From an uncultured virus (IMG/VR IMGVR_UViG_3300033752_000251) (lineage: Duplodnaviria; Heunggongvirae; Uroviricota; Caudoviricetes): a stretch of 64,000 nt of DNA. The notes beneath the pieces were generated by a model. The model was not told where the DNA came from. It saw only the letters and a list, made by a program, of their open reading frames with translations, and made no database searches. The translations under genes were made by a program, and so were the position numbers. Of this stretch, positions 9,267 to 54,600 are shown in pieces (the first letter of the stretch is position 1; every line of letters starts with the position of its first letter). The stretch lies in the IMG/VR virus record IMGVR_UViG_3300033752_000251; one strand, written 5' to 3'.

Positions 9267-11396
9267 ATGACTAACAATCTTAGTGATCTCTTCGACGTTG
9301 AAAGAGATAGGATTAGGTCAAAGTTTAATAATCCAGGATTCTATATGAATCGTGAATTGAGTTGGATGGAGTTCAATAAAAGGGTTCTCCATCAAACTAT
9401 GAGAACTGAGGTTCCTCTTTTGGAGAGACTTAAGTTCTTGGGTATCACGGAATCGAACCTGGATGAGTTTATTATGGTTAGATTTTCATCTATCCTTAAT
9501 AAACTCAGATTGGGGTATACAGAAACGGATATTGCTGGTCTTCTCCCGGAGCAAGAATATGAACTCTTGCTCCGGGAAATTATTTCTTTCAAAGAAATCC
9601 AGCAAGAAAGCTTTGAAAAACTGAGAAAGAAACTGCGTAAAAACAATTTCACGATTTGTAAGTTCAAGCATCTCAGTGAAAAGGAAGTTGATTATGTAAG
9701 AAAGCTTTTCGAAAGAAACATTTATCCGTTGCTGACCCCGATCACCTTTGACTCAACCAAAGAATTTCCCCTTATTAAATCTAAGCAGCTATGCATAATA
9801 GCTTCTCTAGGGGACAAGAAAAATCCAAATCTGAATGTAATGTCCATCATCCCACTCCATGGTCTTGATCGTTTGTACAAGATTGAGACTGACGAGAGCG
9901 ATGAAGAACGATATATCTTGTTGGAGGATATTATCTTTAATTTTCTCCACAAGGTATTTATCAACAAGAGTATCATCTATAGGGGATGTATGAGAATCAT
10001 TCGTGAGGCGGATATTGAAATTGAGGGAAGACGGGATATTTATATTGTCGACCGAATGAGGGAAACTCTCATTAAACGGGAGTTTAGTAAACCCATCTTC
10101 ATGGATATCGACAGTGATGTTCCTAAGGAAACCCTCAAACTTCTGACCAAAATCTTCGACATTGACAAGAGGCAAGTGTTTAAATGTGAAAACATCGTAG
10201 ACATGTCGTTTCTCTTAAGTAAGCCGATAAGAAATGCGGCTTACGAGTACGACCCGTTCAACCCTCAGTATCCAGAAGATCTGATCGGCGAGCACGATAT
10301 GTTTACTGCTATCGACAACGGCGATCTCATTCTTCATCACCCTTACGAGTCGTTCACACCGGTTATCAAATTCCTCGAACATGCGGCCGAGGATAATGAT
10401 GTCTTGGCAATCAAATTGACTCTGTATAGAGTATCTTCTGCGGAGTCCCCGATTGTCGAGGCGTTGTGTAGGGCTGCTGAAAGAGGAAAGCAGGTAAGTG
10501 TTCTTCTCGAAATTAAAGCAAGGTTTGATGAGAATAGAAATATGTCGTTGATAGAAAAACTAAAAGTATCCGGCTGTAAATTGATCTATGGTATTGAGGA
10601 GTTGAAAACACATTGTAAATTTATATTGGTTGTGAGGAAAGGAAAGAAAAATCTCAAAACGTATTGCCATATCGGTACAGGAAATTACAACGACAAGACT
10701 GCGTCAATCTATACCGATATTTCCTACTTCACATCCAGCAGCAAAATAGCGGATGACCTGTTGACGATATTTAATGTCTTGTCAGGTTTCTCCGATCCCA
10801 GAGACGAAGTGAGCAAAATTTTCTATGCTCCGTACAATCTGAGATTGAGATTGTATCAGCTTATCGATCGAGAGATCGAGAATGCTCAAAAGGGTAGACA
10901 AGCTTTCATTACGTTGAAGCTTAACTCCCTTTCTGATCTGGGTATTATCAAGAAGCTGTATGAGGCCTCTGAGCAGGGTGTCAAGATATCCATTATCTGT
11001 AGAGGTATATGCTCGATGAAGAAAATCAATTCGAACATCAGCATCAAGAGTGTTGTTGGTAGATTTCTAGAGCATAGTAGAATTTACTTCTTCTACAATA
11101 ATGGAAAGTCAGATATTTTCATTTCAAGTGCTGATATGTTGACGCGGAATTTGGACAGACGGGTTGAACTTCTGGTTCCGATTACGGACGAAAATTCCAG
11201 AAATAAACTCTTGTCTATTTTGAAAATGTATTTCCGCGACACATTCAACACCTACATTCTCAATAAAGACAATCAGTACGAACTTTTGAAAAGTCCTGTT
11301 CCATTCAATGTCCAAGAGTATTTTATGGAGCAGGCTGTCAAGAGTTTCAAATTACGCAGTATGCCGATTATGTCTCTGAAGAGCAAGAGGAAATAA
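9267..11396 (+). CDS. ppk1: polyphosphate kinase 1
   Basis: NRELSWMEFNKRVL, SNLDEFIMVR, LHHPYESF, EIKARFDE, KTHCK, HIGTGNYN, GRFLEHSRI, SSADMLTRNLDRRVE. Confidence 0.95.
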   Translation: MTNNLSDLFDVERDRIRSKFNNPGFYMNRELSWMEFNKRVLHQTMRTEVPLLERLKFLGITESNLDEFIMVRFSSILNKLRLGYTETDIAGLLPEQEYELLLREIISFKEIQQESFEKLRKKLRKNNFTICKFKHLSEKEVDYVRKLFERNIYPLLTPITFDSTKEFPLIKSKQLCIIASLGDKKNPNLNVMSIIPLHGLDRLYKIETDESDEERYILLEDIIFNFLHKVFINKSIIYRGCMRIIREADIEIEGRRDIYIVDRMRETLIKREFSKPIFMDIDSDVPKETLKLLTKIFDIDKRQVFKCENIVDMSFLLSKPIRNAAYEYDPFNPQYPEDLIGEHDMFTAIDNGDLILHHPYESFTPVIKFLEHAAEDNDVLAIKLTLYRVSSAESPIVEALCRAAERGKQVSVLLEIKARFDENRNMSLIEKLKVSGCKLIYGIEELKTHCKFILVVRKGKKNLKTYCHIGTGNYNDKTASIYTDISYFTSSSKIADDLLTIFNVLSGFSDPRDEVSKIFYAPYNLRLRLYQLIDREIENAQKGRQAFITLKLNSLSDLGIIKKLYEASEQGVKISIICRGICSMKKINSNISIKSVVGRFLEHSRIYFFYNNGKSDIFISSADMLTRNLDRRVELLVPITDENSRNKLLSILKMYFRDTFNTYILNKDNQYELLKSPVPFNVQEYFMEQAVKSFKLRSMPIMSLKSKRK

Positions 11397-11982: not shown

Positions 11983-14106
11983 TTACCACACAAGTTCGTA
12001 TTCGACATCTCTATATTTTATAATAATAGGATTTTGTGATGAAAAAGTTCCTCCTGCTTTTAATAGGGTAAAATAAGGAGAATCGCTATGTCCCACTGCT
12101 ATATATTGACCATCGGGAGAGAATGATACACCATAGCTAGTACCAGGTAATGTATAATTACTAGCTAGTTCTACATTATCTCCATTTCTTTTTAATAGAG
12201 TAAAACAAGGAGAACCCCAATGTCCTACAGCTATATATTGACCATCGGGAGAGAATGATACATCTTCGGCATTACCAGGTAATGTATAAGTACTAGCTAA
12301 TTCTACATTATCTCCATTTCTTTTTAATAGAGTAAAATAAGGAGAACCAAAATGTCCCACTGCTATATATTGACCATCGGGAGAGAATGATACACCATAG
12401 CTAGTACCAGGTAATGTATAAGTACTAGCTAATTCTACATTATCTCCATTTCTTTTTAGTAAAGTAAAATAAGGAAAACCATTATATCCTACAGCTATAT
12501 ATTGACCATCGGGAGAAAATGATACACCCAAGCCATTACTAGGTAATGTATAATTACTAGCTAGTTCTACATTATCTCCATTTCTTTTTAATAGAGTAAA
12601 ATAAGGAGAACCATGATGTCCTACAGCTATATATTGACCATCGGGAGAGAATGATACACCATAGCCACCGTCAGATAATGTATAAGTACTAGCTAATTCT
12701 ACATTATCTCCATTTCTTTTTAGTAAAGTAAAATAAGGAGAACCATAATGTGCTACAGCTATATATTTGCCATCGGGAGAGAATGATATACCTTCGGCAC
12801 CACCAGGTAATGTATAAGTACTAGCTAGTTCTACATTATCTCCATTTCTTTTTAGTAAAGTAAAATAAGGAGAACTATTATGTTCTACAGCTATATATTG
12901 ACCATCGGGAGAGAATGATACATCCAAGCTAGTAAAAGGTAATGTATAAGTACTAGCTAGTAATACTTTTTCATAATTATTCTTATAAACTAATTCTTTT
13001 ACATCTCTAAATATCTTATTACCTTTAACCTCTTCTAACTGACCATCAATTTCTTTAATAACATTTACTTTAGTTTTAATTTCGATGGCTTCTTGTACTC
13101 CATTTCTTTTTAATAGAGTAAAATAAGGAGGAGAATTAATATATCCTACAGCTATATATTGACCATCGGGAGAGAATGATACATCCATGGCGACACTAGG
13201 TAATGTATAAGTACTAGCTAGTTCTACATTATCTCCATTTCTTTTTAGTAAAGTAAAATAAGGAGAACCATAATGTGCTACAGCTATATATCGACCATCG
13301 GGAGAGAATGATACACCCAAGCCAGTACTAGGTAATGTATAAGTACTAGCTAGTTCTACATTATCTCCATTTCTTTTTAATAGAGTAAAATGAGGAGAAA
13401 CATAATGTGCTACAGCTATATATTGACCATCAGGAGAGAATGATGCATCAAAGCTATCACTAGGTAATGTATAAGTACTAGCTAGTTCTACATTATCTCC
13501 ATTTCTTTTTAGTAAAGTAAAACGAGGAGAACCAGCATGTGCTACAGCTATATATTGACCATCGGGAGAGAATGAGACAGAACGTCCAGTAGCGGATAAT
13601 GTATAAGTACTAGCTAGTTCTACATTATCTCCATTTCTTTTTAATAGAGTAAAATAAGGAGAACCATTATGTCCCACAGCTATATATTGACCATCGGGAG
13701 AGAATGCCGTACCATATCCAACATCAGGTAATGTATATTTAGTAGCTAGTTCTACATTATCTCCATTTCTTTTTAGTAAAGTAAAACCAGGAGAACCGCT
13801 ATGTCCTATAGCTATATATTGACCATCGGGAGAGAATGAGATAGAGCGTCCAGTATCGGATAATGTATAAGTACTAGCTAATTCTACATTATCTCCATTT
13901 CTTTTTAGTAAAGTAAAACGAGGAGAACCAACATGTCCTACAGCTATATATTGACCATCGGGAGAGAATGAAACACTATAGCCATAGTTAGGCAATTTAT
14001 ATGAACTAGCCGGCTCCACATTGTCATCTGTAGCAATAAATTTATTATTTAGAATATTTACTGAAACGCCTTGTCGTAGCAATTCGTGAAAATAAAGCTC
14101 TTCCAA
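11983..14106 (-). CDS. double 7-bladed WD40-like beta-propeller protein (14 x 44-aa repeats), putative receptor-binding protein
   Basis: 14 repeats of NVELASTYTLPxxxxxVSFSPDGQYIAVGHxxSPYFTLLKRNGD in two blocks of 7. Confidence 0.88.
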   Translation of the reverse strand: MEELYFHELLRQGVSVNILNNKFIATDDNVEPASSYKLPNYGYSVSFSPDGQYIAVGHVGSPRFTLLKRNGDNVELASTYTLSDTGRSISFSPDGQYIAIGHSGSPGFTLLKRNGDNVELATKYTLPDVGYGTAFSPDGQYIAVGHNGSPYFTLLKRNGDNVELASTYTLSATGRSVSFSPDGQYIAVAHAGSPRFTLLKRNGDNVELASTYTLPSDSFDASFSPDGQYIAVAHYVSPHFTLLKRNGDNVELASTYTLPSTGLGVSFSPDGRYIAVAHYGSPYFTLLKRNGDNVELASTYTLPSVAMDVSFSPDGQYIAVGYINSPPYFTLLKRNGVQEAIEIKTKVNVIKEIDGQLEEVKGNKIFRDVKELVYKNNYEKVLLASTYTLPFTSLDVSFSPDGQYIAVEHNSSPYFTLLKRNGDNVELASTYTLPGGAEGISFSPDGKYIAVAHYGSPYFTLLKRNGDNVELASTYTLSDGGYGVSFSPDGQYIAVGHHGSPYFTLLKRNGDNVELASNYTLPSNGLGVSFSPDGQYIAVGYNGFPYFTLLKRNGDNVELASTYTLPGTSYGVSFSPDGQYIAVGHFGSPYFTLLKRNGDNVELASTYTLPGNAEDVSFSPDGQYIAVGHWGSPCFTLLKRNGDNVELASNYTLPGTSYGVSFSPDGQYIAVGHSDSPYFTLLKAGGTFSSQNPIIIKYRDVEYELVW

Positions 14107-14123
14107 ATTACTTACCTCCTTTA

Positions 14124-14423
14124 TTAAGATTTTTCCCTAACTCTATATTTTCTCCCTCTACATTCGACAATAGTTGGGAAGGGGTTTGATTTAAATATAT
14201 CACTAGCCTTTAATAAGGTGAAAAGCGTGTCACGAACCGTGAATAAATTGACCAAAGGGGGAAATGACACATCATATACAATATATGATGAAATATATGA
14301 TCTTATAAGATTTAGTCCATCATCAGTATAATTGAATTTATTTTTTTTTAGTATTTTTGCTGAAGCATGTCTTTTTATTATTTCATGTAAATATAAATCT
14401 TTTATTTTAAATCCCCATATCAA
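14124..14423 (-). CDS. collapsed paralog of the propeller genes (N- and C-terminal caps with one degenerate blade); possible pseudogene
   Basis: LYLHEI..NKF..TDD...YDVSFPP...FTLLKA...IVECRGRKY matches the termini of both neighbours. Confidence 0.6.
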   Translation of the reverse strand: MIWGFKIKDLYLHEIIKRHASAKILKKNKFNYTDDGLNLIRSYISSYIVYDVSFPPLVNLFTVRDTLFTLLKASDIFKSNPFPTIVECRGRKYRVREKS

Positions 14424-16558
14424 TTAATTGTACGCATCTTATATCTTTTACCTCTATATTCAATAAAGATTGGAGGGGTTTTTGAAAAAGTTCCTCCTGC
14501 TTTTAGTAAAGTAAAATAAGGAGAACCATTATGTCCTACAGCTATATATTGACCATCAGGAGAGAATGATACACTATAGCCATCACCAGGTAATGTATAA
14601 GTACTAGCTAATTCTACATTATCTCCATTTCTTTTTAGTAAAGTAAAATAAGGAGAACCATTATGTGCTACAGCTATATATTGACCATCGGGAGAGAATG
14701 GGGCAGAGTATCCAATATTAGGTAATGTATAATTACTAGCTAATTCTACAGTATCCCCATTTCTTTTTAATAGAGTAAAATAAGGAGAACCATAATATCC
14801 TACAGCTATATATTGACCATCGGGAGAGAATGATACATTTTCGGTAGCACCAGGTAATGTATAAGTACTAGCTAGTTCTACAGTATCTCCATTTCTTTTT
14901 AATAGAGTAAAATAAGGAGAACCATAATGTCCTACAGCTATATATTGACCATCGGGAGAGAATGATACTCTCAAGCCAATATCAGGTAATGTATAATTAC
15001 TAGCTAGTTCTACATTATCTCCATTTCTTTTTAGTAAAGTAAAATGAGGAGAACCCCAATGTGCTACAGCTATATATTGACCATCGGGAGAGAATAATAC
15101 ACCATGGCCATAACTAGGTAATGTATAAGTACTAGCTAGTTCTACATTATCTCCATTTCTTTTTAATAGAGTAAAATAAGGAGAACCATAATATGCTACA
15201 GCTATATATTTACCATCAGGAGAGAATGATACACCTCCAGCATTACCAGTTAATGTATAATTACTAGCTAATTCTACATTATCTCCATTTCTTTTTAGTA
15301 AAGTAAAATAAGGAGAATCATAATGTCCTACAGCTATATATTGACCATCGGGAGAAAATGATACACCCGTGGCGATATTGGGTAATGTATAAGTATCAGC
15401 TAGTAGTACTTTTTCATAATTATTCTTATAAACTAATTCTTTTACATCTCTAAATATCTTATTACTTTTAACCTCTTTTAACTGACCATCAATTTCTTTA
15501 ATAACATTTACTTTAGTTTTAATTTCGATGGCTTCTTGTACTCCATTTCTTTTTAATAGAGTAAAATAAGGAGAACTAAAATGTCCTACAGCTATATATT
15601 GACCATCGGGAGAGAATGATACACCCGTGCCATTGCCAGGTAATGTATAAGTACTAGCTAATTCTACATTATCTCCATTTCTTTTTAGTAAAGTAAAATA
15701 AGGAGAACCATAATATCCTACAGCTATATATTGACCATCGGGAGAGAATGATACACCAAAGCCATAGTTAGATAGTGTATAAGTACTAGCTAATTCTACA
15801 TTATCTCCATTTCTTTTTAGTAAAGTAAAATAAGGAGAACCATTATGTGCTACAGCTATATATTGACCATCAGGAGAGAATGATACACCTAAGCCATCAC
15901 TAGGTAATGTATAAGTACTAGCTAGTTCTACAGTATCTCCATTTCTTTTTAATAGAGTAAAATAAGGAGAAGCATAATGCCCTACAGCTATATATTGACC
16001 ATCGGGAGAGAATGAGACAGAACGTCCAATACCAGGTAATATATAATTACTAGCTAATTCTACATTATCTCCATTTCTTTTTAGTAAAGTAAAACGAGGA
16101 GAAAGATCATATCCTACAGCTATATATTGACCATCAGGAGAGAATGATACAGAGTTTCCATTGCCAGGTAATGTATAAGTACTAGCTAATTCTACATTAT
16201 CTCCATTTCTTTTTAGTAAAGTAAAATTAGGAGAAGCAGTATGTGCTACAGCTATATATTGACCATCGGGAGAGAATGATACACCATAGCCAGTACTAGG
16301 TAATATATAATTACTAGCTAGTTTTACATTATCTCCATTTCTTTTTAATAGAGTAAAATAAGGAGAACCACTATGTCCTACAGCTATATATTGACCATCG
16401 GGAGAGAATGAGACAGAGCGTCCAGTATTAGGTAAATTATATGAACTAGCCAGCTCCACATTGTCATCTGTAGCAATAAATTCATTATTTAGCACCTCTA
16501 CAGAATCAATTTTTTTCCCAATTAACCCATGATAAATTAAATCGTTCACTTCTTTCAC
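14420..16558 (-). CDS. second double beta-propeller protein (14 x 44-aa repeats)
   Basis: same repeat unit and near-identical inter-propeller linker GVQEAIEIKTKVNVIKEIDGQL. Confidence 0.88.
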   Translation of the reverse strand: MKEVNDLIYHGLIGKKIDSVEVLNNEFIATDDNVELASSYNLPNTGRSVSFSPDGQYIAVGHSGSPYFTLLKRNGDNVKLASNYILPSTGYGVSFSPDGQYIAVAHTASPNFTLLKRNGDNVELASTYTLPGNGNSVSFSPDGQYIAVGYDLSPRFTLLKRNGDNVELASNYILPGIGRSVSFSPDGQYIAVGHYASPYFTLLKRNGDTVELASTYTLPSDGLGVSFSPDGQYIAVAHNGSPYFTLLKRNGDNVELASTYTLSNYGFGVSFSPDGQYIAVGYYGSPYFTLLKRNGDNVELASTYTLPGNGTGVSFSPDGQYIAVGHFSSPYFTLLKRNGVQEAIEIKTKVNVIKEIDGQLKEVKSNKIFRDVKELVYKNNYEKVLLADTYTLPNIATGVSFSPDGQYIAVGHYDSPYFTLLKRNGDNVELASNYTLTGNAGGVSFSPDGKYIAVAYYGSPYFTLLKRNGDNVELASTYTLPSYGHGVLFSPDGQYIAVAHWGSPHFTLLKRNGDNVELASNYTLPDIGLRVSFSPDGQYIAVGHYGSPYFTLLKRNGDTVELASTYTLPGATENVSFSPDGQYIAVGYYGSPYFTLLKRNGDTVELASNYTLPNIGYSAPFSPDGQYIAVAHNGSPYFTLLKRNGDNVELASTYTLPGDGYSVSFSPDGQYIAVGHNGSPYFTLLKAGGTFSKTPPIFIEYRGKRYKMRTIN

Positions 16559-16840: not shown

Positions 16841-17590
16841 TTATTCTTCTCGCAGGAAATCTCCATCCTCATCATAAATTAAGGTTCTTGTGACTGTTTT
16901 TGTCACAGTCATACCGTCTTCTGCATAGAAGGTTATGGTTCTTGTTGTATAATTCGGAGACGACCCACCGCTAAGTTCGGTTTTTCGTGCTAATGTATTA
17001 TTTGGTCTGTAATATTCAACGATCGTGAAAATTCCATTCTCGTCTTTACCTGACCTAGAAGGAATTTCAATAATCTTCTGTTCCATCAACAGATCAGCAT
17101 ACTCTTTTGATCTGTTTTCAACTTCATCTGCAATAGCCTGGGCTTGAACAGCAATCGCCTGAGATGTTCTCTCAGGAGTCATATACTTATTACTTGCAGT
17201 TCCCTCTTCGGCTTCAGTTTTAGATGCAATGCCATAGTTCTCAACGTTTCCGAGACCTACATCTCCCTTTACGAGAGTCACTGCACCCGTCTTACCAGCA
17301 ACCGACTTCACAGGCGACAAAGCTGCAATTGCCTGGGAAGTTCTTTGTGGTGTCATGTACTTGTTACTTGCAGTTCCGGCTTCGGCTTCAGTTTTAGATG
17401 CAATACCATAGTTTTCAACATTACCAAGACCTACATCACTTTTATCAGTTCCATGTGGATTTTTAGCATCAATATGCTCTTGTACACTAAGACCGTTTGA
17501 ATCTATAATATTGGACGCTTTAGTAATTGGATGAAGCTCAACCCATCCGACACCAGGTACGTATTGTTTCTGTAGTATATTTTTTGCCAT
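16841..17590 (-). CDS. tail fibre-like protein with internal DVGLGNVENYGIASKTEAE duplication
   Basis: NPHGTDKSDVGLGNVEN and SVAGKTGAVTL fibre repeats. Confidence 0.75.
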   Translation of the reverse strand: MAKNILQKQYVPGVGWVELHPITKASNIIDSNGLSVQEHIDAKNPHGTDKSDVGLGNVENYGIASKTEAEAGTASNKYMTPQRTSQAIAALSPVKSVAGKTGAVTLVKGDVGLGNVENYGIASKTEAEEGTASNKYMTPERTSQAIAVQAQAIADEVENRSKEYADLLMEQKIIEIPSRSGKDENGIFTIVEYYRPNNTLARKTELSGGSSPNYTTRTITFYAEDGMTVTKTVTRTLIYDEDGDFLREE

Positions 17591-17807
17591 TTAAAATACC
17601 TCCGTTCTTTATATTTTGTTAATTCTCCTTATAAATACAGATAGAATAAATATTTATTACATTTTTGTTTTCCATTTAAATTTTGGTAAATATAGTTGTC
17701 TGTCTATATTATAATAGAAACTTGGCGGTCGGATGGACTTTTTAATCCATCCGACCCCAAAAAGTGTTTTTTCATTTAATTTATAGACTATTCACAAATA
17801 GATTAAA

Positions 17808-18485
17808 TTAAATTTCCTGATACCAGAAATCAGCATTTGTAGGTTCAGTACCAGAAACCACAATAGATGCAAGGTTAACAGGTTTACCATCTACTTCATT
17901 CCAATTAACATAACCCCAGGAAAGGCTTCCAGCAGTAGCCCCTGCTTTCAGCACTTTATTGTTGTTGCTGGTTCCAGTTGGAGGCACATGGAGATTACCA
18001 TCGCCAGTCGGATGTACGTACTTATTGGCGCCAGCTTCGATTCCATCGAGTTTTGCTTTATCAGCGGACGACATCAAGCCGTTATTGCTGGTAGTAGCTA
18101 CCGTTTTGTCTGCTTTTGCATTCCATGCAGCTTTTTCTGCATCAGTTACAAAACGGTGAGTCGAATCTTGAGTGATATCCGAAGCGACATGTTGATGCTC
18201 TTTAGGAGCAGCAAACGCATCAATTGCTTGCTTAACTCTCGCAGGGGTCATGTATTTATTATTTGCTGTTCCGGCTTCAGCATCAGCTTGAGAAGCGATA
18301 CCGTAGTTTTCAACATTATCAAGACCAACGTCACCTTTAACCAGTGTAACTGCACCGGTTTTACCTGCAACAGATTGTACAGGGGAAGTCGGAGTCAAAA
18401 GTCCGTTGCCATAAGTGACGGAATACCAGTTGTTATCCGCCGGAGTTGAACGAATCGTCCAGTTTATACCATCGGGAGAAGTCAT
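17808..18485 (-). CDS. orphaned C-terminal part of tail fibre fused to a short TSPDGINWT-repeat fragment
   Basis: shares the 75-bp repeat with 18886..21039; GLMSSADKAKLDGIEAGANKYVHP fibre motifs. Confidence 0.7.
   Translation of the reverse strand: MTSPDGINWTIRSTPADNNWYSVTYGNGLLTPTSPVQSVAGKTGAVTLVKGDVGLDNVENYGIASQADAEAGTANNKYMTPARVKQAIDAFAAPKEHQHVASDITQDSTHRFVTDAEKAAWNAKADKTVATTSNNGLMSSADKAKLDGIEAGANKYVHPTGDGNLHVPPTGTSNNNKVLKAGATAGSLSWGYVNWNEVDGKPVNLASIVVSGTEPTNADFWYQEI
18328..18402. repeat. 75-bp perfect direct repeat, copy 1
   Basis: identical to 20360-20434; encodes LLTPTSPVQSVAGKTGAVTLVKGDV on - strand. Confidence 0.92.
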
Positions 18486-20359
18486 GACGCGATTCCTACG
18501 CCGTACTCTCCAAGGCTCGTAAAGTCCATCGGAACTTTTCCACCCCTTCCAGCGACGGTAACGTAATCGTACTTTACGAGTACTTTAACACTATTATCGT
18601 ATAAAATTTCCCTTTTGTCACTACGAAGTCAACAAAAAGACCCCGCATTAAGCAGGGTCTAATTACACGTCTCTGCGCCTAATTAGGGTGTGTACGGCTC
18701 GCTCGTAATCTGCTCATATTCTTCTGCCGTCATAGCGTCTAATTGTACCACACTGTGCAGATTATGAGGCCCCGCCTATTCGGCGGAGCCTTACGCTTCA
18801 TAATCAAATCCGGTGATTTGTTTATATTGCTCGGCTTGGCCGCCGATGCGATCTGTATAATGAGTCCTCTCTCGTCATCACGATTTCACTCCCATGAAAC
18901 ATACCGTAAACCCGCTGTAAAGCTATTGGTGCTGATATTGGTAAACAACGCTTTAGGACTTGCTGTGGACGGGTTACCAATCTGTAGTTGAATACGGCCA
19001 GTGCTACTATTATAAATGGCGCTGATTTGTATTTCTGCATTAACGGTCGGGTCGACAATGTACAAACCATAGCCGAAGATTAGGTTTGTCGGATATCCGA
19101 TCGTGATGCTGTTAAACGGGTCTCCTTTATATTCAATGTTCCCGATTGTGAACGTAACGGGTATTTGGAACGACCCCAAAAAGTTTGTCTTGGGCGGCGT
19201 GTAATTCGCATAATAGATAATCGACGTAACATTGTTACCGGAGCCGGATCGGTTAAATGTCAGGGTTGTACTACCTACGGAAATCGGCGCATACGTACCG
19301 GTTATTCCGAACAGCGTAACCCCAGACTTGATATTGGCAGCATTAAAATTAGCGTCGTCCGTATAGACCCTTACAGTCCCGTCATGGTATCCTGCTTCCG
19401 GTGTCACATACAGACGCCCAGTTTGGCCTGTACGCGGTGCGCCATAATCATTTGTTTTGACTGGCATCGTGCCGGTTACCTTCGAGCCGTTAACATACGC
19501 CGTCCGGCCAGACAAGATTTGTGCGGCTGTTGCGGTTGCGTCGCTTGTGAATGTTCCAGATACGCCGCCGACCGTCGTACCAGCCTTGATATTGGCCGCC
19601 GTCAAGTTGGTGATATTGGCCGTGACTGTGCCGCTGCCATTGTGATAACCTGCCGGGATTGTGTACGACGCCCCCTGCGTGGTCAAGGTTTGACTGACGG
19701 CTCCATTGTTGATCATGCTGCCGGTTACCTTCGAGCCGTTAACATACGCCGTCCGGCCAGACAAGATTTGACCAGCCGTGGCTGTCGCGTCGCTAGTGAA
19801 CGTACCATCAACGCCGCCTACCGTCGCACCGGCTCGGATATTTCCTGCGGACAGATTCACGATGTCGGTCGTGACCGTGCCGGTGCCGTCGTGGTATCCC
19901 TCCGGGATCGTGTATTCTTCGCCTTGTGATGTCAGCGTTTGGGAAACCGATCCGTTATTGGGCATCGTGCCGGTGCGCTTTACTCCGCCCTGATAAAACG
20001 TCTTACCGGTCAAAACATCCCCAACAGCCGCGTTCGCGTCCTTGGAGATGTCCCGAATTTTGCTTGACAACTGCGCAAACGTGTCGCCTCCTGAAGCAGA
20101 CTGTCCCATGTCAGTGATGGCGGAAGCGATCTGATTTTTCCCATCACTGACAGATTGAAAAAGTTCATCCATTCCATCCCGGACGTTGGTAGAAGTGAAA
20201 TTCGGTGAACTAAGCGAAACTTCCGAAGCATCCGGCGCGGGTGCAAGTGCAGCAATCGCCTGCGCTGTTTTAAGCGGCGTCATGTACGCGGTATCGGACG
20301 TTCCGGCTTCTGCTTCTTCCTGTGTTGCTATTCCATAGTTTTGGACGTTTCCGAGTCCC
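18403..20359 (-). mobile_element. GC-rich captured prophage tail-fibre cassette
   Basis: sharp GC increase bounded by the direct repeat; contains fibre C-terminus, two XkdX-like remnants, terminators and a sigmaA-like promoter. Confidence 0.7.
18683..18835 (-). pseudogene. two tandem XkdX-like C-terminal remnants
   Basis: AEQYKQITGFDYEA* (ends 18791) and VVQLDAMTAEEYEQITSEPYTP* (ends 18683), each followed by a hairpin. Confidence 0.65.
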
Positions 20360-21039
20360 ACGTCACCTTTAACCAGTGTAACTGCACCGGTTTTACCTGC
20401 AACAGATTGTACAGGGGAAGTCGGAGTCAAAAGTTCTTGCCAGTTGCCAACTACGGATGCAGGTTCTGCTCTCAAAATGAATGTTTTGTTGATATCCGAT
20501 CGTACCGCGATATCACCAACTTCCGCAGTAAGACCCAGCATTTCTCCTTCGCTTCCGACAACGAAAGTATCCGAAATAGCAATTGCAGGAAGGACATTAA
20601 CATCAAGTTTACCATTGCTATCCAATACAGGCACATTACCAGCAGAAGTACCGATATCTCTGGAAGCTGCTGTACCTGCATCGGAAATCTTACTAAGAGC
20701 CAATGTAGGAATATCTGCAGATGTCAGAGCACCCCATGTTGCGGTTCCTGACGAACCGCCATATTTAAGTACCTGGTTAGGCGCACCGCCAGAAGGAATA
20801 TGTTTATTACCAGCACTAGTTGGATGAACGTATTTGTTGGCTCCTTCCTCAATGCCCGCAAGTTTATTCTTTTCTTCTGTAGTATAATCTTCAGTAGAAA
20901 GACCTTTACCTTCTTCTTTATCAACCTTTCCGGCAAGTTGCTCATCAAGACCTTCTACTAATTCCGCTTTTGTTTTTGGGTATAAATTATCCCATTCACT
21001 ACCATTCTTGTGACGAATCTGAATGTTTTTACTGCTCAT
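18886..21039 (-). CDS. tail fibre protein (mosaic: AT-rich N-terminus, GC-rich C-terminus)
   Basis: KVDKEEGKGLSTEDYT, GANKYVHP and repeated SDATATAxQILSGRTAYVNGSKVTG motifs. Confidence 0.85.
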   Translation of the reverse strand: MSSKNIQIRHKNGSEWDNLYPKTKAELVEGLDEQLAGKVDKEEGKGLSTEDYTTEEKNKLAGIEEGANKYVHPTSAGNKHIPSGGAPNQVLKYGGSSGTATWGALTSADIPTLALSKISDAGTAASRDIGTSAGNVPVLDSNGKLDVNVLPAIAISDTFVVGSEGEMLGLTAEVGDIAVRSDINKTFILRAEPASVVGNWQELLTPTSPVQSVAGKTGAVTLVKGDVGLGNVQNYGIATQEEAEAGTSDTAYMTPLKTAQAIAALAPAPDASEVSLSSPNFTSTNVRDGMDELFQSVSDGKNQIASAITDMGQSASGGDTFAQLSSKIRDISKDANAAVGDVLTGKTFYQGGVKRTGTMPNNGSVSQTLTSQGEEYTIPEGYHDGTGTVTTDIVNLSAGNIRAGATVGGVDGTFTSDATATAGQILSGRTAYVNGSKVTGSMINNGAVSQTLTTQGASYTIPAGYHNGSGTVTANITNLTAANIKAGTTVGGVSGTFTSDATATAAQILSGRTAYVNGSKVTGTMPVKTNDYGAPRTGQTGRLYVTPEAGYHDGTVRVYTDDANFNAANIKSGVTLFGITGTYAPISVGSTTLTFNRSGSGNNVTSIIYYANYTPPKTNFLGSFQIPVTFTIGNIEYKGDPFNSITIGYPTNLIFGYGLYIVDPTVNAEIQISAIYNSSTGRIQLQIGNPSTASPKALFTNISTNSFTAGLRYVSWE
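20360..20434. repeat. 75-bp perfect direct repeat, copy 2
   Basis: identical to 18328-18402. Confidence 0.92.
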
Positions 21040-21072
21040 TTCTCATCTTACCCCCTTTCTTTTACTGTTTTT

Positions 21073-21507
21073 CTATTCGCCGTCTCTGTTATTGGAATCA
21101 AACCAAAATTCGGTTGTTCCGTCGAGACTAACATTACCTATAATTATTATAATGTTGTCACCGAAATCTGGTGACTCCCCCATATTTTTAAACCAAATCA
21201 TATTCGGTTTTGGATTCGGAGGTTCTTCTTCAGATACTGGGATTACGCTAGTTGATGAAATATTGGTCATGTTTACAACTTGCCAATCATTAATATCAAA
21301 TGGACCAGTCGCCCCGGATTTTTTACAAGATAAAATCTCCTTCTTCCCAGTAGAAGGATTTACCCTAATAATTAAATCATCGGCATTATAAATTTTGGTT
21401 TCATCATACCAATCTATATCGGAATCTCCGAGAGTTATAGCGATAATTTTATCCAATGTTGTTAGGTTATTTTCGCTGAAGTTTTTTAATTTTCTTAAAG
21501 TTGCCAT
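21073..21507 (-). CDS. tail-associated hypothetical protein
   Basis: VSEEEPPNPKPNMIWFK motif typical of fibre/baseplate proteins. Confidence 0.65.
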   Translation of the reverse strand: MATLRKLKNFSENNLTTLDKIIAITLGDSDIDWYDETKIYNADDLIIRVNPSTGKKEILSCKKSGATGPFDINDWQVVNMTNISSTSVIPVSEEEPPNPKPNMIWFKNMGESPDFGDNIIIIIGNVSLDGTTEFWFDSNNRDGE

Positions 21508-21526
21508 ATAAAAATCACCCGCCTTT

Positions 21527-22147
21527 TTATTCTAAAATAATTAATATACTATGCAGTATATTTTCCAAAACCTTACCAACGTTAGAAGGATTTTCTTCAA
21601 TGTAAATACCATTTAGTGTTGCATTCATAGGCGTAGAATTAGGACTGTAATTCAATACATTAAAAATATTTGTCGATAGTTTATTTAGAGGTACAGTTTT
21701 AGTTACAGAATGAGTTTGATCATTTTCATCAACAAATTCGAATTCGAACCTGATGCTTGGAAGATCTCTTAAGATAAAAGCTTCCCCATTTACAAATTCC
21801 ATACAATCAATATCCATGGATATTAAAATTTTCGATACAGGTGAATCGCCTAAAGTAAGAGGGTTGTCAAGTATATTAGATTCATATTGTACAGTATTCG
21901 GTAGTTCTATGTGATCCAATTCCAACAGACAGAGATCACCATCGATACCAATAATACTATGACTGGATTCTAAAAAATCTATATGAGTTTTAAGACGTGA
22001 AATTTTATCATATGATATAATACGACCATCCGGTCTTTTAATCAGCATTTGACCTGTCGGTTTATGAACTAATAGTTCTTCAGGCAATGCTTCTGCCTTT
22101 CTGTCTCTACTAAGAGCAGAAACAGCAAACCTATTCATATCAGCCAT
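21527..22147 (-). CDS. putative virion structural protein
   Basis: AGGAGG SD before ATG 22147; AACA-N6-TA at 22183-22194 (-). Confidence 0.65.
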   Translation of the reverse strand: MADMNRFAVSALSRDRKAEALPEELLVHKPTGQMLIKRPDGRIISYDKISRLKTHIDFLESSHSIIGIDGDLCLLELDHIELPNTVQYESNILDNPLTLGDSPVSKILISMDIDCMEFVNGEAFILRDLPSIRFEFEFVDENDQTHSVTKTVPLNKLSTNIFNVLNYSPNSTPMNATLNGIYIEENPSNVGKVLENILHSILIILE

Positions 22148-22252
22148 GACTGTATCCTCCTTTACACAGACATCCAATAATTTATTATAATGTTTTCAAA
22201 AAAGAGAACCCCCCATACAAAAGACTTGTATAGGGGATCTCTTATTTCTTTA

Positions 22253-53129: not shown

Positions 53130-53336
53130 ATGGTATGTATGGTCACCGAAGAATTGATTTGTCCTACTTGTGGTATCGCAAAATGAGATAAAGCGACCCC
53201 CATTCATGAATCTACTTTTAAAGTTATCAAATGTGATGATTGTGGTCAAATTTTGTTGAAATATAAAAAGAAGTTTAAGCCTGTTCGTCTTGTTAAAATT
53301 CCTAAAATTGTAGGAAGGATGTTTAAATATGTCTAA
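53130..53336 (+). pseudogene. Zn-ribbon gene with in-frame TGA at 53184
   Basis: MVCMVTEELICPTCGIAK*DKATPIHESTFKVIKCDDCGQILLKY... continues in frame and overlaps the recA-like start. Confidence 0.65.
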
Positions 53337-54600
53337 TAGACTTTTGGCCCGTCTCAGGGAAAATGACAAACGTGGTCTCTTCAGAAAAACACAAACTTCT
53401 ATTAGTTATAGAACAGGATTCTCAACCTTTGATTATCGTAATGGATATATGATCCAGGTAAAAGACAACAACGACAGCCTGGTAGAAGAATATCCTTCTG
53501 TTGGTATTCTTGGAGGTTCCTTTGTAACCATTATTGGAAAACCCGGTACAGCTAAATCCACATTTGCTATTCAGGCGGCAGCTAATATTGTGCGTCCTTT
53601 TCCGAATGGTTTCGTCCAGCATTATGATCTCGAACGAGCTACTACATATACTCGTGTTAGGAACGTTACCGGTTTTTCGACTGTTGAACTCGAAGAAAAA
53701 TACGTTCTTAAACAAGAGGAAAGCTATATTGAGGATATCCTCGATGCTATTCTTGCTATCTGCAAAGTTAAAGAAGAAGAACGTGAAAATATGATGTATG
53801 ACACAAAATTAAAAGATGAATTCGGTAATCCCATCATGGCTTTTGTGCCTACGGTTGTCATTATTGACTCCATTCCTGTCATGGCATCCAAGGAAGAAGA
53901 AATGGAAGGTATGGCGGGTATGACGTATGCCAACCGTGTAGCAAGAGCACTTTCACAATTTTACAACCGACTAATCCCTGTCATTAAGAGCTATAATATC
54001 ATCGTCATTGCAATTAACCATCTCAAAACTAAAATCAATATCAATCCGATGCAACGTACACAACCCCAGCTCAATTATCTTGGTATGGATGAATCTATTC
54101 CAGGTGGTTTCGCTCCACTTTATTATGCTAACACTCTCGTGAAATTCACATCTAAAGTTGGGGATAAACGTACGATGGATAAAGATGGTTTTAACGGTTT
54201 TGATGTTAGAGTAGACTTTCTCAAATCCAGAACCAATATGGCTGGGCAATATTGTGATTTGGTTTACAATCAAATGTGTGGTTTTGACCATATTTATTCG
54301 CAATATGCATTTGCTCAAGCCAATGAACTTATCGGCGGCAAGAATCCTAAAAAGTATGTCATTGGCTATGAAGACATTAAATTTGACGACAGAAAACTTC
54401 GTGAGAGTTTTATGGCTGACGAAAAACTCAGATTCGCACTATACAATTCAACTATCCCGTTACTTGAAAAGCAACTCTCTAGAGTCGATCCCGATGAAAC
54501 CTCTAAGGTTGTCGACCTTACGGAAACTCTTATCCGCTTGAGTAAATCTCAAGAGGGTGAAGCATACGATGAAGTTAGTGAATTAGGAGCGGTGGTGTAA
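53329..54600 (+). CDS. RecA/UvsX-like recombinase
   Basis: GKPGTAKS, DLE, VVIIDSIP, IAINHL, PGG motifs. Confidence 0.9.
   Translation: MSNRLLARLRENDKRGLFRKTQTSISYRTGFSTFDYRNGYMIQVKDNNDSLVEEYPSVGILGGSFVTIIGKPGTAKSTFAIQAAANIVRPFPNGFVQHYDLERATTYTRVRNVTGFSTVELEEKYVLKQEESYIEDILDAILAICKVKEEERENMMYDTKLKDEFGNPIMAFVPTVVIIDSIPVMASKEEEMEGMAGMTYANRVARALSQFYNRLIPVIKSYNIIVIAINHLKTKININPMQRTQPQLNYLGMDESIPGGFAPLYYANTLVKFTSKVGDKRTMDKDGFNGFDVRVDFLKSRTNMAGQYCDLVYNQMCGFDHIYSQYAFAQANELIGGKNPKKYVIGYEDIKFDDRKLRESFMADEKLRFALYNSTIPLLEKQLSRVDPDETSKVVDLTETLIRLSKSQEGEAYDEVSELGAVV

Follow-up and report, generated by a model that had tools for sequence, protein, structure and literature searches.

A probable capture scar in a tail-fibre gene of an AR9-like jumbo phage

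A fibre gene of an AR9-like jumbo phage, contained in a window of 64,000 nucleotides (the whole stretch of DNA analyzed), is split by GC-rich DNA lying between two copies of an exact 75-bp repeat. This arrangement raises the question of whether the repeats operate a switch between two fibre ends, as an earlier note on this DNA proposed, or record a past recombination. We favor, at a probability of roughly 0.7, the reading that a single capture event left this scar and that alleles were exchanged afterwards. As such the locus is a clear example of a known route of fibre evolution and not a demonstrated on/off switch. The bacterial host of the phage is probably Paenibacillus-like.

Structure and integrity of the locus

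The two repeat copies are identical over 75 nt, not extendable on either side, and spaced 2032 nt from start to start (Table 1). The DNA between them (1957 bp) has a GC content of 0.507, compared to 0.367 window-wide. Both copies encode the same peptide, one in the 717-aa ORF and the other in the 225-aa ORF, and deletion between them, computed from the coordinates, leaves 1200 nt with a single terminal stop, encoding 399 aa. Recomputation confirmed the exact repeat, the GC-rich 1957 bp and the in-frame 399-aa product described previously. The flanking repeats are long, perfect and direct rather than inverted, and an invertase switch was rejected on that ground. The fibre repeat unit occurs in four copies, and the remaining five of the six possible pairs agree at just 26–47 of 75 positions. 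Since these pairs match so poorly, and the next 84 nt beyond copies A and B agree at only 55 positions, the 75-nt identity is not due to chance. Other long exact repeats in the window (96, 95, and 76 nt) are internal tandem repeats of two β-propeller genes.

Table 1. Features of the fibre locus and related genes (positions in the window)
Feature	Position	Strand	Remarks
75-bp repeat, copy A	20360..20434		Inside chimeric 717-aa gene; mismatch at 20426 in some strains
75-bp repeat, copy B	18328..18402		Exact repeat of copy A
Chimeric 717-aa fibre gene	18886..21039	-	Native aa 1–227, captured aa 228–717
Native N-terminal part of fibre	20435..21039	-	GC3 0.27, phage-like codons; family N-terminal motif, E 4.5e-12
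Repeat unit and spacer, homeologous fibre type	20158..20359	-	Absent from L083
Distal shaft and tip of small-myophage tail fibre, with downstream non-coding DNA	18771..20157	-	96.4% to L083
Two exact 52-bp repeats, 249 bp apart	19470-19521, 19719-19770		
Exchanged tip tract	18915..19422	-	32 differences to L081, 32 to L083; 22 between L081 and L083
Weak XkdX-like remnant (18791-18868) and 28-bp hairpin	18764..18868	-	E 0.029, below cut-off
XkdX remnant without start	18683..18775	-	PF09693, E 1.4e-6, above cut-off
Terminator-like hairpin (18660-18638) and sigma-70-like promoter match (18621-18593)	18593..18660	-	Consensus matches only
Cut-off first codons of small hydrophobic gene	18488..18529	-	Read by hand
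Fragment of unrelated repeat protein	18403..18494	-	39–43% to L188 repeats; no Pfam match
Displaced native C-terminus	17808..18327	-	Within 225-aa ORF (17808-18485); intact frame, phage-like codons
Downstream 249-aa fibre gene	16841..17590	-	Two further copies of fibre repeat unit
Upstream 144-aa gene, probable adaptor	21073..21507	-	30/78 identical to N-terminus of sister's 363-aa protein
UvsX/RecA-like recombinase gene	53329..54600	+	Candidate catalyst

The 399-aa fusion has counterparts among relatives of about 400 aa. P0009 (413 aa) is collinear with fibre aa 1–201 and with the displaced end over its full 172 aa; P0004 is likewise collinear with both parts, and then runs into a homolog of the 249-aa gene. 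The displaced C-terminus ends in the conserved terminal motif of this family (E 5e-11). Judged by these relatives, the 399-aa form is the ancestral gene. Searches with the fibre N-terminus gave the window's own contig as the only close relative among both viral contigs (best 80 of 378 matches) and metagenome contigs (best 80 of 340), a search with a 216-aa neighboring protein matched that contig alone, as did an exact search for 20 nt of the insert's non-coding part, and a phage collection yielded only short 70–88% matches and weak protein matches.

A metagenomic assembly could have fused two phages at the repeat, and indeed unitigs break at the 75-mer, so that no single piece spans the stretch. 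However, one further assembly (L282) carries window positions 17700–21100 exactly and another (L081) is 99.2% identical across the locus, with the same structure in both. Unitigs from run X1 span the insert and enter the repeat at both insert ends. Chimeric proteins occur on 16 and 19 contigs, the latter for the junction-spanning 225-aa protein (the samples need not be independent), insert depth tracks phage depth from ~12 to ~160 across runs, and strain-specific SNPs lie within the insert. Misassembly was rejected on the L282, L081 and X1 evidence, and we regard an artefact as extremely improbable.

Origin of the insert and of the repeat

Across 1388 bp the insert shares 96.4% identity with the end of the fibre gene in L083, a small myophage resembling Paenibacillus prophages. 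Elsewhere in L083 nothing matches the window, and its fibre gene sits where fibre genes usually do, behind baseplate J and Mu gp48-like genes. A Paenibacillus prophage (L274) is 90% identical over 203 bp to the same segment. The proposal that the insert is foreign and recent is borne out by the L083 match. GC3 is 0.55 in the insert and 0.27 and 0.31 in the flanks; codon usage separates from the phage neither aa 228–294 nor the tip (aa 541–717; log-ratio 2.0, 177 codons).

A 28-bp hairpin, found beside the weaker XkdX-like remnant, also lies directly upstream of an ORF start in L256. The promoter match points at the 225-aa ORF (19 promoter-like sites, vs. 11.4 ± 3.6 by chance), and the cut-off hydrophobic gene may be holin-like. 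Run X7 contains 18488–18785 in a context that diverges on both sides (two loose ends, taken to be one contig). The fragment of the unrelated repeat protein joins copy B at a short shared word. Its ATG (18485) shares the reading frame of the displaced C-terminus, which may still be made as a 225-aa protein. Among the loci compared no one donor was found for the entire insert, 20158–20359 and 18403–18770 being unmatched; for this reason we infer where the crossovers fell, and likewise the short word common to both sides of the second junction. The insert may have been built in several steps.

Rather than an att site, the 75-bp repeat resembles a piece of phage sequence that was doubled when two crossovers fell out of register. 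The duplicated peptide is absent from the donor-type fibres P0136 and L274, and the codons of the 75-mer lean to phage usage (log-ratio −4.7, only 26 codons); the longest inverted pair within the 75-mer is 6 nt. On the donor-type fibres compared and this codon usage, att-site integration was rejected. The same evidence goes against the Campbell-type event put forward in the earlier note, and against a reading in which a preformed circle with one copy of the 75-mer would have integrated by a single crossover and stayed. An insert between perfect direct repeats does have single-crossover geometry, and a circle formed earlier from donor and phage pieces would give an identical sequence, but two prior junctions would be required to build it. 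No integrase was found in the insert or in the window proteins scanned (50, of which 49 were drawn from 71 ORFs of at least 130 aa), and neither integrase nor resolvase was detected in the nearest record used for these searches (G001, 163 kb, 67% complete; PF00589, no match). We consider such an integration quite unlikely.

Under the capture reading, an AR9-like jumbo phage with the 399-aa gene, as indicated by its relatives, would have received ~1.96 kb of fibre-end and tail–lysis junction DNA from the small-myophage and prophage pool, a source matched over 1388 bp. One crossover, in the conserved fibre repeat, would have placed the foreign shaft and tip in frame behind the native part; the fusion lies at the shared repeat unit, and 55 of 84 nt are alike past this junction, no donor of 20158–20359 being found among the loci compared. 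The other crossover, at few shared bases, would have involved another copy of the genome and fallen 75 bp upstream of the first point, and it is this displacement that would have duplicated the 75 bp.

Tail-fibre mosaicism (lambda stf, T4 gp37, P2, P1) likewise moves a distal segment between unrelated phages and fuses it in frame, and here too the fusion is apparently at a conserved repeat, the distal part being near-identical to an unrelated phage (L083) and the proximal part native. In contrast to a clean fibre replacement, this is an insertion with duplication in which the old end is retained. PMC8136500 reports transfers in ~8% of temperate–virulent pairs; most of these concern virulent phages with large genomes, and virion assembly genes are among those moved. 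PMC3945230 describes E. coli phages without recent temperate–virulent mosaics and attributes an ancient stf case to invertases; the transfer here is, by contrast, recent (96%), and no invertase was found in the window proteins scanned or in G001 (67% complete). That an AR9-like phage with a large genome has drawn, at 96% identity, on fibres of small prophage-like myophages is a direction of transfer described as rare for E. coli phages (PMC3945230) but documented more broadly elsewhere (PMC8136500). According to PMC3945230, relaxed homologous recombination with (defective) prophages has been shown for lambda, with phage-encoded (Rad52-like) recombinases preponderant and two homologous flanks. 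Crossover between diverged sequences and prophage DNA as donor are common to both, whereas the candidate here is UvsX-like and one junction has only few shared bases. A few term searches found no account of this case in the literature, which does not prove its absence from print. The record is unusually complete, holding the ancestral gene, a near-identical donor-type fibre, the scar, a later tip exchange and a repeat-number variant; a sister lineage with a different fibre module is also readable.

Excision and fibre switches

If the repeats drove a switch, UvsX would excise and re-insert a 2032-bp circle, keeping two fibre states and toggling host range. At 75 bp, the repeat exceeds the RecA/RecBC minimum of 23–27 bp and falls inside the RecA/RecF range of 44–90 bp, as quoted in bioRxiv 10.1101/2024.09.17.613263. 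An intact displaced end recurs without change on 19 contigs, and the 52-bp repeats at the same locus have already yielded an in-frame 249-bp deletion in run X10. The suggestion that a phage RecA/UvsX could act without a dedicated recombinase stands in part, given the UvsX/RecA-like gene in the window, the lack of integrase and resolvase matches in G001 (67% complete), and the X10 deletion; the gene is a candidate catalyst.

Read depth is consistent with the insert being the rule. Insert to left-flank ratios are 1.27 (X1), 0.83 (X7), and 1.03 (X10), using three of four runs (X15, with low-depth fragments at the locus, was excluded); in X10 the right flank stands at 19.3, the insert at 12.4 and the left flank at 12. 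The X7 value would favor a switch, but GC bias could explain it equally as well as an insert-less minority, and in X1 and X10 the insert is not below the left flank. Depth thus allows a minority excised form in one of three usable runs. All three assemblies with this fibre-gene type (L001, L282, L081) contain the insert, which is the standing state of the lineage; none shows the excised form, though unitigs break at the 75-mer and contigs cannot show the junction. Among the best 120 of 2221 protein matches there was neither the 399-aa protein nor any protein of 394–1255 aa with the fibre N-terminus beyond the 717-aa cluster, and an identical 226-aa N-terminal match would head that list. One repeat copy is mutated in some strains (position 20426 in run X7), and T205I, in the upstream copy, is found in two of five protein alleles. 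Furthermore, the displaced end comprises shaft repeats and a short end motif, with no tip-like domain; because it resembles a shaft segment, a switch between two tips is unsupported. The two-state host-range switch of the earlier note consequently finds no backing in the assemblies, the protein search or the displaced end, and we think it unlikely. On the capture reading, excision to the 399-aa gene would be mechanically possible, but a rare, nearly one-way reversion that loses the captured tip.

The invertase switches of Mu (G/Gin) and P1 (C/Cin) supply a single fibre N-terminus with either of two C-termini encoded at the same locus, an arrangement also present here. In contrast to Gin/Cin, the repeats are direct, inversion cannot reverse the arrangement, and the second end is unlike a receptor tip; no resolvase-family gene was found (no serine invertase among the 50 scanned window proteins, and no PF00239 match in G001, 67% complete). 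The nearest model for the switch idea is the Salmonella wzy locus (bioRxiv 10.1101/2024.09.17.613263), where 113-bp direct repeats flank the segment, RecA-type excision is proposed as a possibility, and variants with the deletion were seen and became enriched when phage were the selecting agent. Both loci hold a 2–2.5 kb segment between long perfect direct repeats. However, wzy is bacterial; in the phage the repeats sit within a coding sequence, and neither the assemblies nor the protein search yielded a deleted form. Duplications in T4 gene 37, which widen host range (as cited in PMC7002106), similarly lie inside a fibre gene. There the duplicated domain alters host range, whereas in the present gene only a 25-codon scar is duplicated and the altered part is foreign.

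A maintained contingency system lacking a recombinase is a further, doubtful possibility. The insert would act as a landing pad sampling host-prophage tips, the captured promoter and start would keep the displaced connector expressed, and through the 75-bp repeats some genomes, a minority, would return to the ancestral fibre architecture until siblings infecting the same cell converted them again. Were excision and re-conversion shown to alternate in this way, the locus would be a phage equivalent of phase variation in hosts, working without a recombinase of its own.

Exchange of the captured tip and neighboring genes

The captured end is a putative receptor and host-range tip, as suggested by the fibre position of its L083 homolog. 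The 717-aa protein matches a PHROG minor tail protein, and its cluster comprises five alleles, all five at 717 aa. Among 150 matches listed of 816, the tip was matched at full length by one cluster only, the rest being shaft repeats; a PDB sequence search returned no match to solved structures, the best Atlas score (0.85) is a lead only, and the AlphaFold model (pLDDT 31, from two sequences) is unusable.

Two strains differ at 32 positions in the 508-bp tip versus 4 in the surrounding 4841 bp (Fisher p 3e-29), with no differences in 735 bp of adjoining shaft. The L081 tip equals L083 at 21 of the 32 positions, and its allele also occurs in runs X7 and X10. Among five proteins, both T205 and I205 are found with either tip allele, which makes four combinations. 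Read from these alleles, strains vary because the captured tip has been exchanged, in a direction and from a donor that we infer. Captured homology on both sides of the tip lets ordinary homologous recombination replace it, and the divergence pattern shows at least one such replacement. A diversity-generating retroelement or point hypermutation would fit changes that cluster in the C-terminal tip and are mostly non-synonymous (19 codons, vs. 6 synonymous). These counts are near the neutral expectation and do not show selection. The changes are not adenine-specific and include the 6 synonymous codons, 21 of 32 match L083, and no reverse transcriptase was found in G001 (67% complete). The retroelement was rejected because of the lack of adenine specificity and of a reverse transcriptase in that incomplete record, and this origin is very improbable.

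The protein encoded upstream of the fibre gene is probably an adaptor; in a sister strain (L196) its homolog is fused to the terminal fibre gene. Docking of the displaced C-terminal motif onto the N-terminus of the 249-aa protein is a lead, and stays one because the sequence-only profile test is weak (adaptor 2.3 bits, sister's fused protein −1.2, with one background hit at 5.8). The 249-aa gene also has an allele of 307 aa, which contains an extra inserted hybrid repeat, of the same unit type as in 20158–20359 and of the kind that crossovers between fibre repeats would leave.

Repeat and insert at the fibre locus

Recomputation confirmed the exact 75-bp direct repeat, the GC-rich 1957-bp interval and the in-frame 399-aa deletion product described in an earlier note. 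The two 75-mers are identical at all 75 bases in an exact-repeat comparison of the window, GC between them is 0.507 (0.367 for the window), and computed deletion between them gives a 399-aa frame without a stop. The fibre repeat unit has four copies, and the five pairings other than A with B are alike at 26-47 of 75 positions; over the 84 nt that follow, A and B agree at only 55, so the identity is not explained by protein conservation. The longest dyad in the 75-mer is 6 nt, and one copy is already mutated in some strains. Misassembly at the repeat was rejected, as two further assemblies carry the same structure (L282, identical; L081, 99.2% identical). Proteins of the 717-aa cluster occur on 16 contigs; for the 225-aa junction protein the count is 19, from samples not necessarily independent.

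The largest part of the insert (Table) shows 96.4% identity to L083, a phage segment of 49% GC, where it matches the end of the fibre gene and the DNA beyond it; this upholds the proposal of a foreign, recent insert. L083 encodes baseplate J, Mu gp48-like, fibre, XhlA-like (below the Pfam cut-off), amidase and holin proteins, and the rest of it has no match in the window. The remainder of the insert is debris of a tail-lysis junction; sequence searches found no donor for 20158-20359 or 18403-18770.

Table. Features in the window and in the insert
Feature	Position	Strand	Remark
Probable adaptor gene, 144 aa	21073-21507	-	
Chimeric fibre gene, 717 aa	18886-21039	-	
75-mer copy A	20360-20434		in 717-aa gene
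L083-matching part	20157-18771		
Divergent tip tract	18915-19422		window versus L081
75-mer copy B	18328-18402		in 225-aa ORF
225-aa ORF	17808-18485	-	
Displaced end	17808-18327	-	
249-aa gene	16841-17590	-	
Motif pairs at fibre-gene boundaries (C-terminal, then N-terminal in the following gene)	17808-17870; 17500-17590; 21073-21240		
XkdX remnant	insert, outside L083-matching part		E 1.4e-6
Second XkdX remnant	insert		weaker
Terminator-like and promoter-like sites	insert		consensus matches only
Truncated start of small hydrophobic gene	insert		hand reading of loose unitig ends
Unrelated repeat-protein fragment	insert		supplies in-frame ATG to displaced end
Polyphosphate kinase gene	9267-11396		four Pfam domains
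Two tandem beta-propeller genes	11983-16558		~710 aa each

Ancestral gene and probable route of capture

Sequence comparison shows the 399-aa form to be the ancestral gene. Relatives of ~400 aa are collinear with both halves of the split gene, matching the predicted fusion: in P0009 (413 aa), aa 1-201 align at 46% and the entire displaced end at 35%, while P0004 matches the same two stretches at 66% and 32%, then extends into sequence homologous to the 249-aa gene downstream. Profiles made only from relatives detect both family motifs: the N-terminal one in the 717-aa protein (E 4.5e-12), the C-terminal one at the terminus of the displaced piece (E 5e-11).

Shaft repeats and a motif of ~20 residues make up the displaced end, without a tip-sized domain, and in the sister strain L196 (upstream identity 96.6%) one 363-aa gene, an adaptor homologue fused to a 249-aa homologue, stands in for the whole module. 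Both observations suggest a role for the 399-aa protein as an intermediate segment, not as a second receptor tip. The longer type occurs in 7 of 10 members of the L196-type 363-aa cluster. The motif pairs at gene boundaries (Table) seem to be fused in P0004, as also, less clearly, in the L196 363-aa protein; a split docking domain linking fibre segments in a chain is possible, although the sequence test is weak. In L196:2858-4591, compared with window 17525-21930, the adaptor, fibre and 249-aa N-terminal module are swapped for a diverged 205-aa gene (47% identical) and the fused gene. Breaks at 17389 in sequencing runs X7 and X15 fit the presence of an L196-like strain.

The simplest account would be an out-of-register double crossover. 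One exchange within the homeologous repeat would have joined the foreign fibre in frame; the other, 75 bp upstream where a few bases are shared, would have duplicated the intervening 75 bp. A 307-aa allele of the neighbouring 249-aa gene (P0286) gained a third, hybrid insert-type repeat, of the type expected from such a crossover, and agrees with a loose end at 17360 in X7. The Campbell-type integration proposed earlier fits poorly: the 75-mer is absent from donor-type fibres, its codon usage leans to phage (log-ratio -4.7, from only 26 codons), and no integrase or resolvase was found in the 163-kb nearest record (67% complete). Nor was a reverse transcriptase found in that record. A preformed circle is a less likely alternative source of the insertion.

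The locus works like tail-fibre mosaicism and prophage-to-phage recombination as described in PMC3945230 and PMC8136500. Its repeats are direct, unlike the inverted sites of invertase switches, and its tip changes are not adenine-specific as in DGRs; the feature that it is seen to share with wzy-type reversible excision is repeat geometry. A limited literature search found no published description of it. The capture locus is a real case of an already known kind of fibre evolution.

Tip exchange and possible excision

Between the window and L081, 32 of 508 bp differ in the tip tract versus 4 of 4841 bp in its surroundings (Fisher p 3e-29) and 0 of 735 in the adjacent shaft. Relative to L083, the tract has 32 differences in the window and 22 in L081, and the shaft 6; L081 states are identical to L083 at 21 of the 32 positions. 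Such a divergent tract within near-identical surroundings and shaft argues that, after a single capture, the tip was replaced at least once, probably by an allele of the donor pool. Tip allele and T/I205 are found in all four combinations among five proteins, which points to reassortment between strains. Non-synonymous and synonymous codons number 19:6, a ratio that does not show selection. A sequence search of the PDB with the tip gave no hits. At 19400-19720, five substitutions of the P0001 allele lie close together within the third shaft repeat (aa 443-506), possibly a further conversion tract.

Excision of the insert is plausible, given that 75 bp falls inside the RecA minima quoted in bioRxiv 10.1101/2024.09.17.613263 and that an in-frame deletion of 249 bp, bounded by 52-bp repeats, is present in X10 at flank depth. 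Both points also favour a maintained switch, which we nevertheless consider improbable: the insert is present in 3/3 assemblies of this fibre-gene type, excision would remove the captured tip, whose return would require a sibling genome or circle, and one repeat copy is mutated in some strains. The two-state host-range switch of the earlier note is not supported, the excised form being found neither in these assemblies nor in a protein search (394-1255 aa), in which every identical N-terminus among the best 120 of 2221 matches belonged to the 717-aa cluster, and the displaced end having no tip-sized domain. The excision junction is not directly visible in contigs. Insert to left-flank depth is 1.27 in X1, 0.83 in X7 and 1.03 in X10 (X15 excluded for low cover); the X7 value could reflect either GC bias or a minority of genomes that lack the insert. 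Over 20405-22189 in X10, depth reaches 19.3 in the right flank against 12.4 in the insert and 12 in the left flank, hinting at another strain with the N-terminus but neither insert nor old end.

Phage context and likely host

The window encodes split RNA polymerase subunits (one with best match to Bacillus phages AR9 and PBS1, 37%), a PhuZ-like tubulin, a UvsX-like recombinase and an endolysin bearing SLH domains. The donor fibre has a prophage relative in a Paenibacillus genome (L274), which makes a Paenibacillus-like host likely. The L081 contig sits in a Flavihumibacter MAG, probably through a binning error, because it alone among that MAG's contigs matches the searched region. The phage also encodes a full polyphosphate kinase. 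The beta-propeller genes consist of 132-bp repeats and have a GC3 near 0.10; their many exact repeats of 60-96 nt suggest that conversion between repeats is still continuing.
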